Of a stretch of 10,677 nucleotides of DNA, positions 1-10,677 are shown in pieces. The notes beneath the pieces are model-generated. The model was not told where the DNA came from. It saw only the letters and a list, made by a program, of their open reading frames with translations, and made no database searches. Each line of letters starts with the position of its first letter. Position 1 is the first letter of the stretch. Location of the stretch: assembly GCA_034722955.1 (NCBI GenBank), contig JAYEOM010000099.1, positions 1 to 10,677 on the forward strand. The letters run 5' to 3'. Origin of the DNA: Campylobacterota bacterium. Its GTDB lineage: Bacteria > Campylobacterota > Campylobacteria > Campylobacterales > Sulfurovaceae. A program made the position numbers and the translations under genes.

Positions 1-1047
1 GAGTATACTAGCGGATACCTCTTTGCGTACAAGAATAGAGGGAGGTATGATACCGCTTTGCATCAACTTCATGATAGAGTTTGAGTGGTAGTGAGTATGG
101 TGATGTTCGCCATGTGGGCATGTCTGTGTACTGACAAGAGTTTTGCAAGTGTCGCAGTAGACATACTCATCAACAGTAGTGATAGTAATGTCTATATCTT
201 TGAGACTATCAAAGATCGTGCTGAGACGATTTTTGTCATAATAGAGTCCCAGTCCTGCATGGTTTTTGCCTATTACTAACTCATTGCAGCCATAATTTTT
301 TGCCAGAAGGGCATCTAGTACCAACTCATTGTATCCTGCAAAGATATAGCTATTTTCAAAAGGAATTATGATTACTTTATTTCTAGGCAGGAAATGATCT
401 ACAAAAGTATTCAATGCATTGTGGCGGATATCATAACGCAATCCATTTGAGGTAAAAGGTTTTCTCAAAAATATAACCATCATATCGGAAGTATTCAGTG
501 CTTGTCGTATCATCCTCTCATGTGCACGATTGAAGGGATTTGATGCTAGCATCATCGCAGAGATATTGGTAGCACCTGTACGGTTGATCATACTTCTGAT
601 ACGGTTTATGTTGTCATCGATGAGAGGATAGTCTACATAGTAGTCACCGCTTACAGCTATATCGCCCAATCTCGCCATGGTATTTTTGACACCTGGATGA
701 GAAAGATCACTGGTGCCATAGATATGATAGAGTCGCTCTTTTGGTACTATCCCAAAAGTTTCATCTACGACTATCTCCCCGACTTTCCCCTCACTGCTCA
801 AGAGATCTAGAGTCTCTCCTTCTGCAGCCGTGAGTAGAACTTCCCTATTTCTCTTTCCCTTTGGAGCAAGGATGAAAGCAAAAGGGTATGGAAAACCTTT
901 GAATATTTTGGCTTTATCGACTTGGTTGGCTATCTCTTTGTTCATCAAACTCACTACCGGTGATATGAGACCTGCCTTGACTAGTGCGAGAGTAGATAGT
1001 GCTTCTGCATCGATATAGAGTGATCTATTTTTTCTTGAAGATGCCAT
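1..1047 (-). CDS. Sulfate adenylyltransferase (ATP sulfurylase)-like protein, Cj1609-type; 3' end runs off the window
   Basis: Not in the ORF track because it has no stop in the window. Manual translation from ATG at 1047 is open to position 1 (349 codons): MASSRKNRSLYIDAEALSTLALVKAGLISPV...SAMMLASNPFNRAHERMIRQAL...YIFAGYNELVLDALLAKNYGCNELVIGKNHAGLGLYY...YVYCDTCKTLVSTQTCPHGEHHHTHYHS...ILVRKEVSASIL. It aligns by eye to Sat motifs (QxRNPxHRAH, KNYGC..IVGRDHAG, CxxC..CPH, RxEV). It follows ispDF and the regulator, as in the C. jejuni Cj1607-Cj1609 order recalled from knowledge. Confidence 0.85.
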   Translation of the reverse strand, partial: MASSRKNRSLYIDAEALSTLALVKAGLISPVVSLMNKEIANQVDKAKIFKGFPYPFAFILAPKGKRNREVLLTAAEGETLDLLSSEGKVGEIVVDETFGIVPKERLYHIYGTSDLSHPGVKNTMARLGDIAVSGDYYVDYPLIDDNINRIRSMINRTGATNISAMMLASNPFNRAHERMIRQALNTSDMMVIFLRKPFTSNGLRYDIRHNALNTFVDHFLPRNKVIIIPFENSYIFAGYNELVLDALLAKNYGCNELVIGKNHAGLGLYYDKNRLSTIFDSLKDIDITITTVDEYVYCDTCKTLVSTQTCPHGEHHHTHYHSNSIMKLMQSGIIPPSILVRKEVSASIL

Positions 1048-1906
1048 ATTTCTTCCTTTTTTCCCATAAGCTTTTTCGAGAGATACCCAATTTTTTGGAT
1101 AGCTCTGTATCTGGAAATTTGTATTGAAAACTGTTGACGATAAATTTGACATAGTCATCGATAGTCAAGATCTCATTCTGGTCATAGAGTTTACTCTCTG
1201 TTCTCAGCTCTATAGTATCAAAATCTGTCTCTATATCAGAGGTTGTTGAGAGGATGAAATCACTATCTTTGATCAGACTGAAGAGCTGCTCCCTCTCTGT
1301 CTTTTTTAGTACTTGAAGCTCAGAGAGGTATAGCAGTGAATTTGCCGATGAGAGTGCTATCTTCTCTTTCCATCCTTTGTCAGCAAGGGGGATGAAGCTC
1401 AGTGGTCTACGGTGAAGCTCTATATAGGAGAAGACTACTTTATCTACAAGTCTAGGGTAGTTTGTCAGGATGACAATGGGTGTTGTGATCTTCTCTATAG
1501 TGATATTTATATTGATATCTTTTAGAAGATTTTGTGTATATTCTGAAAAGAGTGTATTTTGCTGTTTCAACTCTTGATACTCTTTGAAGTGCTCTATTTT
1601 GCGTTGCAACTCTTCGATCATAAATGGCTTGACAATATAGTCTTTGGCTCCCTGCTGTAGCGGTATACTAACTGTATCATTGTTGATATAGCTAACCATG
1701 AGTATAATGATCTTATCTTTAAGTCGTTTGATAAGCGGAGAGGGGTTTTGACCAGGAAGTGTTGTGGAGAGGAGGTAGACATCACCTTCACTATGCAGTG
1801 CCTCTTTGATCAAACTATAGATCTCTGTCTCATAGCCGTTTTCTTGGAGTTTTGAGGAGATACTCTGTGCTAGATAGAGTTCATTTTCTACGATAATAAT
1901 TTTCAT
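1025..1906 (-). CDS. Atypical orphan response regulator, HP1021/Cj1608 family (receiver domain plus C-terminal Fis-type HTH)
   Basis: N-terminal receiver fold (MKIIIVENE...DVYLLS...GAKDYIVKPF) with Ser47 at the phosphoacceptor Asp position. C-terminal DTELSKKLGISRKSLWEKRKKYGI HTH. Directly downstream of ispDF with ATGA overlap, as for HP1020-HP1021 and Cj1607-Cj1608. Confidence 0.88.
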   Translation of the reverse strand: MKIIIVENELYLAQSISSKLQENGYETEIYSLIKEALHSEGDVYLLSTTLPGQNPSPLIKRLKDKIIILMVSYINNDTVSIPLQQGAKDYIVKPFMIEELQRKIEHFKEYQELKQQNTLFSEYTQNLLKDININITIEKITTPIVILTNYPRLVDKVVFSYIELHRRPLSFIPLADKGWKEKIALSSANSLLYLSELQVLKKTEREQLFSLIKDSDFILSTTSDIETDFDTIELRTESKLYDQNEILTIDDYVKFIVNSFQYKFPDTELSKKLGISRKSLWEKRKKYGIFKKK

Positions 1907-3024
1907 TCTTGTGTCCAGTTAAAATATGTTAAGTTTGCGACAGCTTCTACAGCGACTCCCTCTTTTCTACCTAGAGCTCCTAGGTGTTCTGCTGTAGTTG
2001 CTTTGATATTGACAAAATTTGCTCTTATATTTAAAAGTTTTGCTAAGTTTTGTCGCATTCTCTCTTTGTATGGGAGTAGTTTTGGTGCTTGAGCGATGAT
2101 GGTCAAATCAACATTGCCGATAACCAATCCGCAATCTTCTAATTTTTGTACAACATCTAGTAGAAGTCTGCTTGAGTCGATACCTGCATAAGCATCATCT
2201 GTATCGGGATAAAACTCACCGATATCTCCAAATCCAGCAGCCCCTAGAAGGGCATCGATGAGAGCATGAATAGCTACATCTCCATCGCTATGAGCTTTGA
2301 ATCCATAGGATAGATCGATTTTTGTGCCACAGAGCATCATGACCTTTCCCTCTTCAAAAGGGTGAATATCTATACCAAAACCTGTCAGTGTCTGTGCAGA
2401 TGGTCTCTTGAGACAGGGTAGTTTGCTCAAATCCTCTGTAGTTGTGAGTTTGTGAGCACTTTGGGAGCCTTCAACAAAGAGAATTTTCCCTCCATGGGCT
2501 TCGATAGCACTACTCTCATCTGTATAGTCAACCTTTGAGAGGAGAGCTTCTCTTAGAAGTTTTGTACTGGTGAGTTGAGGGGTTTGTATCACTCTTGCAT
2601 TGCTGCGGTCGGCAGGTTTGCCATCTATATATAAAGTATCTACGACAGAGAGAGCCGGAACAATACAATCAGCCTCTCCTTTGGTATCTATTACACGGTG
2701 TATCATCGCTTCATCAAGACAGCATCTTGCTATATCACTGACCAATACATAAGGGGTTTCTACCTCCGCTAGTGCATTTTTCAGAGATGCTTGACGACTG
2801 TTACCACCCTCTACATAGTCAAACTCAGCAAAATATCGCATCAGTTTGATATCCTCTCTAGATGAGACTATTATGACTCTGTCGAACTCATATAGAGATG
2901 AGAAGTGATCACTAACCTGTAGCCACAGAGGCTTATCAGCACTATATAGCCACTGTTTTTTGGGTTTCATTTTGAAGCGTGTTGCAGAGCCTGCACCTAA
3001 AAGTATCAAGGTAATATTAGACAA
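1903..3024 (-). CDS. ispDF: Bifunctional MEP cytidylyltransferase / MECDP synthase IspDF
   Basis: IspD motifs LLGAGSATRF..KKQW, GGNSRQASL, IQTPQ, TDESS, KLTT.EDL. IspF motifs GFGIDIH, AHSDGDVAIHALIDALLGAAG.GDIG..YPDTD, NIKATTAE.LG..GRKEG. Start moved from 3078 to TTG at 3024 because AGGAG (3037-3033) lies 8 nt upstream, giving 373 aa. Confidence 0.95.
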   Translation of the reverse strand: MSNITLILLGAGSATRFKMKPKKQWLYSADKPLWLQVSDHFSSLYEFDRVIIVSSREDIKLMRYFAEFDYVEGGNSRQASLKNALAEVETPYVLVSDIARCCLDEAMIHRVIDTKGEADCIVPALSVVDTLYIDGKPADRSNARVIQTPQLTSTKLLREALLSKVDYTDESSAIEAHGGKILFVEGSQSAHKLTTTEDLSKLPCLKRPSAQTLTGFGIDIHPFEEGKVMMLCGTKIDLSYGFKAHSDGDVAIHALIDALLGAAGFGDIGEFYPDTDDAYAGIDSSRLLLDVVQKLEDCGLVIGNVDLTIIAQAPKLLPYKERMRQNLAKLLNIRANFVNIKATTAEHLGALGRKEGVAVEAVANLTYFNWTQE

Positions 3025-9447: not shown

Positions 9448-10269
9448 ATGATAACCAAATGTTTATTTCCGGCTGCAGGATATGGAACACGATTTCTGCC
9501 TGCTACTAAAGCGATGCCAAAAGAGATGCTCCCTATATTGACTAAACCGTTGATACAGTATGGTGTAGAGGAGGCTATGGAGGCAGGGTGCAGTGTCATG
9601 GCTGTGATCACAGGTCGTGGCAAACGAGCTATAACTGACCATTTTGATATCTCTTATGAGTTGGAGCATCAGATCAAAGGCTCTTCTAAGGAGATACTTT
9701 TGAAGGAGATCCGTACTATTATCAAAAACTGTACTTTTACCTATACTCGTCAAAATGAGATGAAAGGCTTAGGGGATGCGATCTATAAAGGCAAAGTTCT
9801 TGTAGGAGATCAAGATCCTTTTGCAGTTATCCTCGCCGATGATCTATGTGTCAATCCCCAAGGTGAGGGTGTCTTAGCACAGATGATAACGCTCTACTAC
9901 AAATATAAATGCTGTATTGTAGCTATCATGGAGGTACCTCAAGATGAGGTAGACAAATATGGTGTTATCGAGGGCAATCAGATAGAGGATGGTGTCTACA
10001 TGGTCTCCAATATGGTAGAGAAGCCAGATAGAGATAAAGCCCCGTCAAATCTCGCTGTCATAGGGCGATATATCCTCACACCAGATATATTTTCTGTGAT
10101 CGAAAAGACAAAAATAGGAAAAAATGGAGAGCTTCAGATCACTGATGCACTCTGTGACCAAGCAAAAAAAGGAATGGTTATCGCTTATAAATTTAAAGGT
10201 AAGCGATTTGACTGTGGAAGTGTAGATGGTTTTGTCGAAGCTACAAATTACTTTTATGAGCAGGGTTAG
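9448..10269 (+). CDS. galU: UTP--glucose-1-phosphate uridylyltransferase
   Basis: KCLFPAAGYGTRFLPATKAMPKEMLPI..KPLIQY, RQ..MKGLG.A, LADD, MVEKP, GRYILTPDIF, GELQITDAL and RFDCGS. Confidence 0.96.
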   Translation: MITKCLFPAAGYGTRFLPATKAMPKEMLPILTKPLIQYGVEEAMEAGCSVMAVITGRGKRAITDHFDISYELEHQIKGSSKEILLKEIRTIIKNCTFTYTRQNEMKGLGDAIYKGKVLVGDQDPFAVILADDLCVNPQGEGVLAQMITLYYKYKCCIVAIMEVPQDEVDKYGVIEGNQIEDGVYMVSNMVEKPDRDKAPSNLAVIGRYILTPDIFSVIEKTKIGKNGELQITDALCDQAKKGMVIAYKFKGKRFDCGSVDGFVEATNYFYEQG

Positions 10270-10320
10270 GCTACTACAAAGATCGCCCCTACAGATAGTC
10301 TCATCGTAGGGGTACCCCTT
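10270..10320. repeat. GTAG-type REP-like inverted doublet (..CGCCCCTAC / GTAGGGG..), possible galU terminator hairpin
   Basis: CCCCTAC(A)GAT at 10286-10296 pairs with ATC-GTAGGGG at 10303-10312, immediately after the galU stop. Confidence 0.5.
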
Positions 10321-10362
10321 ATTCTCAGCTAAGGCTACCCCAAGGAGATAAACACACAAATA

Positions 10363-10485
10363 GCTTTATGAGGTTTTTCATAGACAAGGCAATCGTTTGA
10401 AGTACTAGCCTTAGCTAATTGCCCGTAGGAAATGCCCTTGGGGTACAAAAACGATTAACGAAGTATATGGGAAACCTCATAAAGC
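10363..10485. repeat. 123-bp ERIC-like imperfect palindrome (MITE-like)
   Basis: Left arm GCTTTATGAGGTTTTTCATAGACAAGGCAATCGTTTGAAGTAC. Reverse complement of the right arm is GCTTTATGAGGTTTCCCATATACTTCGTTAATCGTTTTTGTAC. The terminal match is a perfect 14 bp, with an asymmetric CAAGGC / AACGAAG internal loop. Confidence 0.8.
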
Positions 10486-10594
10486 CCGTAGGGATTATCA
10501 CAACCTGCTATTTTGGTGTGATTAGGAGGAGTAGGATATGAGTTATCATTATCAGTCGAGTAGCCCCAAAGAATCACACTTCAAGGCTCTCACA

Positions 10595-10628
10595 GAACCG
10601 TGCTTGATAGTCTCCCATCACACGGCTC
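10595..10628 (-). ncRNA. Group II intron catalytic domain V
   Basis: 34 nt with AGC catalytic triad, 9-bp lower stem GAGCCGUGU/GCACGGUUC, 2-nt AA bulge, 5-bp upper stem GAUGG/CUAUC and GAGA (GNRA) tetraloop. Confidence 0.95.
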
Positions 10629-10640
10629 CTATTGCTAAAA

Positions 10641-10677
10641 TCATTGATATTTAAGTTGCCAATGTGGAAATAGATTT
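10641..10677 (-). CDS. C-terminus of group II intron-encoded reverse transcriptase/maturase (partial)
   Basis: 10676-10641 translates to NLFPHWQLKYQ*, with the stop 12 nt before domain V. LFxHW resembles the C-terminal motif of bacterial class D (RmInt1-like) IEPs. Only 11 residues are visible. Confidence 0.65.
   Translation of the reverse strand, partial: NLFPHWQLKYQ

Follow-up and report, generated by a model that had tools for sequence, protein, structure and literature searches.

The intron end in the window

The window, meaning the whole stretch of 10,677 nucleotides that was analysed, is the entire contig C99 of an assembly of 2.51 Mb in 140 contigs. Its gene products include ATP sulfurylase, IspDF, ThiC, an Mrp-like ATPase, LolA, RmuC, ArsC and a nucleotidyl transferase, among others, and with this gene content the earlier label of a housekeeping region is fair. 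For the Mrp-like protein, identity is 91% with the counterpart in a same-genus genome and 85-87% with the counterparts in the MAGs that carry the loci L031 and L032 discussed below, and because of these identities the placement in Campylobacterota, near Sulfurovum, holds. ThiC shows 57-58% identity to longer frames in Sulfurovum MAGs, which are probably another form of the gene. The window is present in four metagenome runs (share of words 0.55-0.95), and a search for expression data listed no RNA dataset that contains it.

The last 123 bases of the contig, read on the minus strand, are a genuine 3' end of a group II intron comprising domains V and VI. The covariance model RF00029 (Intron_gpII) matched 10630..10555 on this strand with 61.6 bits (E 1.8e-10; gathering cut-off 40 bits) over model positions 1-77 of 77, and it is the sole gathering-level Rfam match within the window. 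The intron follows the nucleotidyl-transferase gene in antisense orientation, within an intergenic repeat, and its splicing is needed by no host gene. A scan of 10150-10677 for promoters and terminators gave one promoter-like site, with 1.5 expected, and no terminator.

All parts of the intron end lie on the minus strand. At 10641..10676 stand the last 11 codons of an IEP and its stop (AAT CTA TTT CCA CAT TGG CAA CTT AAA TAT CAA TGA), the frame 10676..10644 encoding NLFPHWQLKYQ, with the LFxHW end of the class D motif, and the TGA occupying 10643..10641. The same C-terminal tail is found, identical, in the 413-aa proteins P0002, P0003, P0004, P0007 and P0011. The stop is separated from domain V by a 12-nt linker (10629..10640), which by its position would be the 3' side of domain IV. 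Domain V itself, at 10595..10628, has 34 nt and folds with an MFE of -18.2 kcal/mol into a 9-pair lower stem containing the AGC triad, a bulge formed by A24 and A25, a 5-pair upper stem and a GAGA loop. The AA bulge is in the canonical register, with the lower stem closed by a U9.G26 wobble. Pair 12-21, which is U-A here, reads C-G in the relatives L031-L034, a compensatory change that supports the fold. An exact scan of genome_contigs for a 45-nt domain V pattern gave no matches.

The segment 10558..10594 contains J5/6 (UGU) and domain VI, the hairpin of which spans 10591..10558 and carries the bulged branch A at 10561, which is base 7 when counted from the 3' end. The final intron bases, GAC, are at 10555..10557, and the 3' splice site after 10555 was placed by the diverging flanks of three copies and by empty sites. 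What follows at 10495..10554 is, from comparison with paralogues, the 3' exon and the downstream half of a homing-site unit, with T at +1 as IBS3 and then GATAATGATAAC... An intron-free paralogue of this exon lies on contig C75, and the 3' exon on contig C108 is homologous to it (89% over 173 nt, intron end included). The predicted ligated exons are GGGGTCAGG joined to TGATAATG...

The initial annotation had proposed a group II intron here, with an upstream frame ending in NLFPHWQLKYQ and a stop, a 34-nt domain V with an AGC triad, AA bulge and GAGA loop, and a domain VI with the bulged A 7 nt from a terminal AC at 10555. The covariance model confirms the intron, and each of the named elements was seen in the sequence. 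It had further called the element invisible in the ORF track, which agrees with the lack of any ORF of at least 60 aa over the intron end.

Relatives and class of the intron

Of 36 further genomes from the family, 6 carry the intron 3' end, four of them within the 13 same-genus genomes, and some of these copies are plainly truncated (G006, G013). Searching with the 115-aa IEP tail of a relative identified 54 longer proteins, typically of 413 aa, with RVT_1 and GIIM domains. The 413-aa IEPs have YADD, RGWVNYY and a C-terminus ending in WLTKIASKEPNLFPHWQLKYQ. Pfam found no domain beyond RVT_1 and GIIM in the full-length relatives, hence no endonuclease domain, and with the ORF stopping 12 nt before domain V this bears out the earlier description of the element as En-minus. 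The closest loci in genome_contigs are L031 (Sulfurovum sp. MAG, 92%) and L032 (Campylobacterota MAG, 84%), while L033 and L034, both from a Sulfurovum sp. MAG, have truncated IEPs. The remaining loci are at most 62% identical and spread over many phyla. The full copy in L032 occupies 322..2251 (1930 nt) and contains a match to the domain I model RF01999 (113.3 bits) as well as one to RF00029. Public collections already contain these proteins, some of them labelled group II intron RT/maturase.

For class assignment we examined the C-terminal motif of class D proteins, given as LX3AX3PXLF[V/A]HW in the available text of PMC4615759. The window shows NLFPHW only, and the tail of the relatives, LTKIASKEPNLFPHW, reads L-TKI-A-SKE-P-N-L-F-P-H-W, with all fixed positions present and P at the [V/A] position. 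RmInt1 (L113) has the strict motif. Three introns on the S. meliloti plasmid pSymA match the IEP, with identities of 58%, 50% and 49%. The second of these is RmInt1, since its 5' exon ends in GATGAGA and a loop holds UUUCGUC, the IBS1 and EBS1 of that intron (PMC4075523); it spans 1884 nt on pSymA. The 58% match, L110 (CP140947.1 142525-146754), is the S. meliloti intron closest to this one and is inserted within another RT gene exactly at the YADD-coding sequence, its EBS1 AGUCGU matching the exon ACGACU.

Domains I-IV of L032 and L034 can be aligned with RmInt1 along their whole length, and RF01999 matches L032, L034, RmInt1, its kin and six further relatives, while three more distant introns (31-35% identity), which served as outgroups, match RF02005 instead. 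From 88 IEP rows, 17 were removed because they were duplicates or did not reach 380 aa, and the other 71, which included these three outgroup introns and no class E, F or g1-g4 references, went into a quick ML tree. In it, six Sulfurovum/Campylobacterota rows formed a clade with an SH-aLRT of 96. This clade is sister to, not nested in, a 62-row clade (96) that holds RmInt1, and the 68 rows together split from the three outgroups at 100. A Shigella IEP on a long branch sits within the clade.

Comparison with known systems places the intron nearest to RmInt1, RmInt2 and Sr.md.I1, which likewise have an RT and X protein of about 413-419 aa, without D/En, that carries an LFxHW signature near its C-terminus. 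It has in common with RmInt1 and its kin the 34-nt domain V with a 4-nt loop, the RF01999 type of domain I and the alignable domains I-IV, and with RmInt1 itself EBS1, EBS2 and a single-base EBS3 at homologous places. The differences are that protein identity to RmInt1 is only 50%, that the motif has P for V/A, and that the host belongs to a Campylobacterota lineage in which few of the searched genomes had a group II intron. The sequence evidence thus supports assignment to the endonuclease-less RmInt1 type (class D or IIB3-like). The class D-like label of the initial annotation therefore stands as far as the fixed motif positions, the 50-58% identity, RF01999 and the grouping with RmInt1 against the three outgroups go, and it is weakened by the P at [V/A] and by the position of the clade beside, rather than among, the other 62 rows.

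Other classes of small introns fit less well. Class C introns have a shorter domain V. Like class C (GsI-IIC and the terminator- or attC-targeting introns), the present intron has a small En-minus IEP of about 420 aa and is associated with palindromic DNA, and the best solved-structure match of the protein by sequence is the GsI-IIC RT (E 1.9e-46). Unlike class C, which inserts after hairpins and is described without EBS2 (PMC4075523), it has a 34-nt domain V with AGC, and its EBS2/IBS2 covary, pairing 5/5 in four types. Classes E and F (Cl.be.I2, Pe.th.I2) share a small IIB-like ribozyme and an En-minus IEP with it, but have a domain V loop of 5 nt in the available text of PMC3753933. Here the loop is GAGA, and of 33 domain V pattern matches in this intron and in relatives, 30 are 34 nt long and have a loop of 4 nt, which argues against both classes. 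The combination of EBS1, EBS2 and a single-base EBS3, which is IIB-like, was found in the relatives, together with the RF01999 match in common with RmInt1.

Group II introns appear to be scarce in this phylum, as the initial annotation had supposed, since only 2 of the 150 other genomes sampled from it gave an RF00029 match. No IEP with more than 41% identity to this one was present in 400 other genomes searched. Such absences are weak evidence because binned genomes tend to lose repeats of this kind. Class D as a whole is widespread, with 67 ORFs from 49 species in the accessible part of a 2013 survey (PMC3552965), and its introns are typically located in insertion sequences. No printed description of this Sulfurovum/Epsilonproteobacteria lineage was found in the literature searched, which again is weak evidence. 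The class D list of PMC3552965 may include epsilonproteobacterial members.

RmInt1 and other class D introns that lack an endonuclease serve as tools for gene targeting and as models for the spread of retroelements without DNA cutting. The present lineage, which comes from sulfur-oxidising Campylobacterota living in brine and at vents, widens their host range and supplies a natural series of retargeted EBS/IBS pairs. It leaves the understanding of how group II introns work unchanged.

Homing site and exon-intron pairing

The homing site of the intron is the repeated motif GGGGTCAGG^T, with ^ marking the insertion point, which forms part of a short repeated palindrome. Empty sites are abundant in the same genome and read either ...GGGGTCAGG^TGATGC... 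(^TGAT..) or ...GGGGTCAGG^TAACAACTAC... (^TAAC..), and because of them the boundaries could be fixed as a 5' exon ...GTCAGG followed by the intron GTGTG...CTCGAC and then T. The sequence GGGGTCAGGT occurs in 57 copies in this genome, against 1.7 expected from base composition. The motif GGGTCAGGT has 70 sites. At 19 of them an inverted copy lies no more than 160 nt away, at 12 the N-terminal part of a Y1-transposase-like ORF comes next, and 42 are no more than 300 nt from a contig end. An intact paralogue of this ORF matches Pfam Y1_Tnp with an E of 6e-14. The repeats that end in GGGGTCAGGT are a REP-like system, and this system is the homing site of the intron. Some of them (e.g., C3:68-160, C132:291-380 and C13:106-200) include perfect palindromes of about 50 nt, and other units with this end lie directly upstream of truncated Y1-transposase (IS200/RAYT-like) ORFs.

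Homing into repeated mobile-element sequence is also a property of RmInt1 and RmInt2, the targets of which are, in the available text of PMC4615759, ISRm2011-2 and the inverted repeats of insertion sequences, respectively. Unlike RmInt1, the present intron has a short palindromic repeat motif, GGGGTCAGG^T, as its target. An association of a group II intron with REP elements has been tabulated for Pseudomonas putida, for 2 of 9 copies (PMC1525189).

To the two junctions of L032 and L034, a metagenome scan added 59 further 5' junctions, giving 61, of which 35 came with enough sequence. An EBS1-like loop was found by pattern in 21 of these 35 metagenome or MAG copies, about 6 of them apparently spurious. 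Ten of the 21 pair 5/5 with exon positions -6 to -2, two pair 4/5, and nine, some of them spurious, pair at 3 positions or fewer. The fully paired copies represent four types (GTCAG/CUGAC, GACAG/CUGUC, GACGT/ACGUC and GTGGG/CCCAC), and only 3 of 2000 shufflings reached the observed mean. For EBS2/IBS2, pairing at 5/5 was seen in only 5 of 17 copies, again in four types. In 4 of 4 introns the +1 base covaries with a single alignment column, A in the column going with T and G with C; this column corresponds to RmInt1 position 329, which is probably the EBS3 of RmInt1. The covariation and the empty sites lend good support to retrohoming by base pairing in the lineage.

The exon base at -1 behaves differently. 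It is G in 9 of the 10 fully paired copies (L032, L034, L173, L180, L194, L195, L211, L216 and L219; EBS1 loop around intron positions 262-270), where it faces an invariant A in a non-standard pair. In RmInt1 and L110, in contrast, the -1 base forms a Watson-Crick pair with EBS1.

Tandem copies occur as well. On the metagenome contig L212, one copy has the 3' end of another (...GGGGCTACTCGAC) in the place of its 5' exon, a head-to-tail arrangement as described for RmInt2 in the accessible part of PMC4615759.

Copies in the genome and the state of the copy in the window

The intron is present in several copies in this genome. Four RF00029 matches were found, each at a contig end: C99 itself, C70:48-123, C108:33-108 and C28:251-326. 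The 3' ends on C99, C70 and C108 are 100% identical over 123, 123 and 108 nt, and C28 carries a variant. The copy count that had been suggested as a check on the initial annotation thus reveals a multi-copy element rather than a lone one. Beyond ...CTCGAC (+T) the three identical ends enter three different flanks. Matching 5' ends (GTGTGCCAAGAAGGCG..., GTGTG...) stand at the ends of C21 and C47, so that the genome holds only two clean 5' junctions versus three identical 3' junctions. Internally deleted intron remnants are present on C139 and C67. The 5' copy on C21 (C21:22816-22845) has an insertion of about 28 nt in domain I, resembling part of the 165-nt repeat described below (GGAAATGCCCTTG...), and because of this insertion the copy is probably disabled.

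The region C28:1-326 (locus L009/L027) is an ORF-less derivative of a related intron (RF00029, 63.8 bits), in which the domain III/IVa region reaches domain V within about 90 nt without an IEP. The same joint, at which L031 jumps from 221 to 1515 and 1293 nt are skipped, also occurs in contigs of three of the four runs.

The body of the intron is absent from the assembly. Its PF00078 matches are other reverse transcriptases, and searches of the assembly with GIIM and with the 115-aa IEP tail of a relative returned only the C139 remnant. Ends of neighbouring contigs overlap by 127 nt. We attribute the stop of the contig inside the intron to the collapse of identical or near-identical copies during assembly, and the break implies that the repeat continues beyond 123 nt, over a distance that it does not specify. 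This accounts for the assembly break at the locus and is a warning that binned genomes lose intron bodies.

The four runs that contain the window were compared with L031, which among the loci that have both a full IEP and the 3' end is the nearest to this intron. Their contigs cover 28-30 of its 30 bins in many short pieces that are mostly 90-95% alike, so that a swarm of related copies exists in the source samples; this accounts for the contig break but does not prove the C99 copy complete. The bin 1211-1265 is uncovered in runs X1 and X2, and the last bin, the 3' exon of L031, in X1, X2 and X4. Loose ends in the source runs carry the same CUGAC EBS1 loop.

Synteny gave no link from C99 to a 5' junction: nine same-genus loci differ downstream of the orthologue of the last gene, and their downstream DNAs map to C31, C11, C22, C52, C96, C44 and C133, never to C21 or C47. 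The GC skew on the intron-sense strand, taken as a proxy for lagging-strand bias, is -0.108 for C99, +0.073 for C70, +0.063 for C21, +0.084 for C47, about 0 for C108 and +0.026 for C28. For these few copies, it hints only weakly that the C99 copy may lie in the orientation that RmInt1 does not prefer.

Taken together, the stretch 10555-10677 (minus strand) is likely the 3'-terminal part of one copy of a mobile RmInt1-type intron that is present in several copies and spreads by retrohoming. The lineage has so far been seen in Sulfurovum-like Campylobacterota. Its spliced RNA, bound by the RT/maturase, would base-pair through EBS2, EBS1 and EBS3 with ...GGGGTCAGG^T... DNA, reverse-splice into the motif and then be copied into DNA. 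Priming would probably be by nascent DNA at replication forks, as in RmInt1, since the IEP has no endonuclease domain and RmInt1 provides the precedent (PMC4615759). The C99 copy may be of full length and active at the present day.

It is possible, though not what we favor, that the C99 copy is a dead or 5'-truncated fragment, arisen by incomplete reverse transcription or by decay, that keeps the IEP tail and domains V and VI. Such fragments do exist: the copy G006:C124 retains only the 115-aa IEP tail, G013:C76 has no RT ORF upstream of its 3' end, L033 and L034 hold only IEP residues 105-412 and 131-412, C139 and C67 are internally deleted, and the 5' junctions in this genome are outnumbered by the 3' junctions. 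However, the complete identity of three 3' ends suggests recent copying, the runs with the window also contain sequence over nearly the whole IEP region, and the contig break places the repeat past 123 nt, though not how far. An origin as a chance hairpin, or as a mis-join or contaminant of the assembly, is very improbable. The assembly does appear to be a binned metagenome (140 contigs, with metagenomes as runs) and the intron body is missing from the bin, but the full RF00029 model is matched with an E of 1.8e-10, one 3' end joins three different unique flanks in the genome, the flank in the window bears the genome's own repeat families, and 4 of 13 same-genus genomes carry the same intron end. 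The identities of the Mrp-like protein, both to the same-genus genome and to the MAGs with the closest introns, also speak against contamination.

A different doubt concerns the class. The intron might stand next to class D as a lineage of its own, with D or D plus E as its sister group, instead of being class D proper, which we consider unlikely. The sister position of the six-row clade and the P at the [V/A] position of the motif would fit such a lineage, and D and E are sister clades in the accessible part of PMC3552965, class E proteins being outside the present tree. On the other hand, the root lies on a long outgroup branch, so that the sister position may be an artefact, and the P variant also occurs inside the 62-row clade that holds RmInt1, e.g., in Endozoicomonas and Pseudomonadales rows. 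The domain V loop has 4 nt instead of the 5 nt of IIE/IIF, RF01999 is common to this intron and RmInt1 with the outgroups in another family, and domains I-IV align with RmInt1 throughout. An RmInt1-type, class D-like intron is the preferred reading.

The observations can also be combined, tentatively, into a broader and rather doubtful scenario. The intron would represent an early-branching, Sulfurovum-restricted sister lineage of class D that specialised on the conserved GGGGTCAGG end of REP/IS200-like repeats, with an unpaired -1 G opposite an invariant A at the 5' splice site. ORF-less derivatives would be mobilised in trans, and the introns, together with the repeats, would be a leading reason why the genomes of these bacteria are fragmented and rearranged.

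The window contains a further repeat of about 165 nt at 10329-10494, 60 nt from the intron. The region 10300-10677 has 56 matches in this genome, most of them on this repeat, and about a dozen of these are nearly full (94-99%). It folds as one long hairpin with z of -5.2 on the plus strand and -3.2 on the minus strand, and Rfam gave no match at E<=1 for 10250-10560. The repeat looks like a MITE or a structured repeat, and a piece of it is inserted in the C139 intron remnant.

Reverse transcriptases outside this intron lineage were also noted. At C60:12355-14728, an RT ORF of at least 367 aa with YADD is cut off by the contig end. About 0.7 kb upstream of it lies another ORF that presumably resembles a CRISPR RAMP protein, and the RT may be CRISPR-associated. 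RT domains in open frames of about 730-770 aa were found at C109:2232-2843 and in loci L125-L141, from many genomes of the phylum. With 30-37% identity to the RT part of the IEP and no maturase match seen, they are a different, non-intron RT family common in the phylum. Two loci, L049 (2738-2861) and L097 (3024-3139), have a second RF00029 match; its domain V is 33 nt long with a 5-nt GAAAA loop (IIE/IIF-like), and it lies directly downstream of a class D-like intron, the IEP match of which is stretched by about 500 nt, and these second matches may be nested introns.
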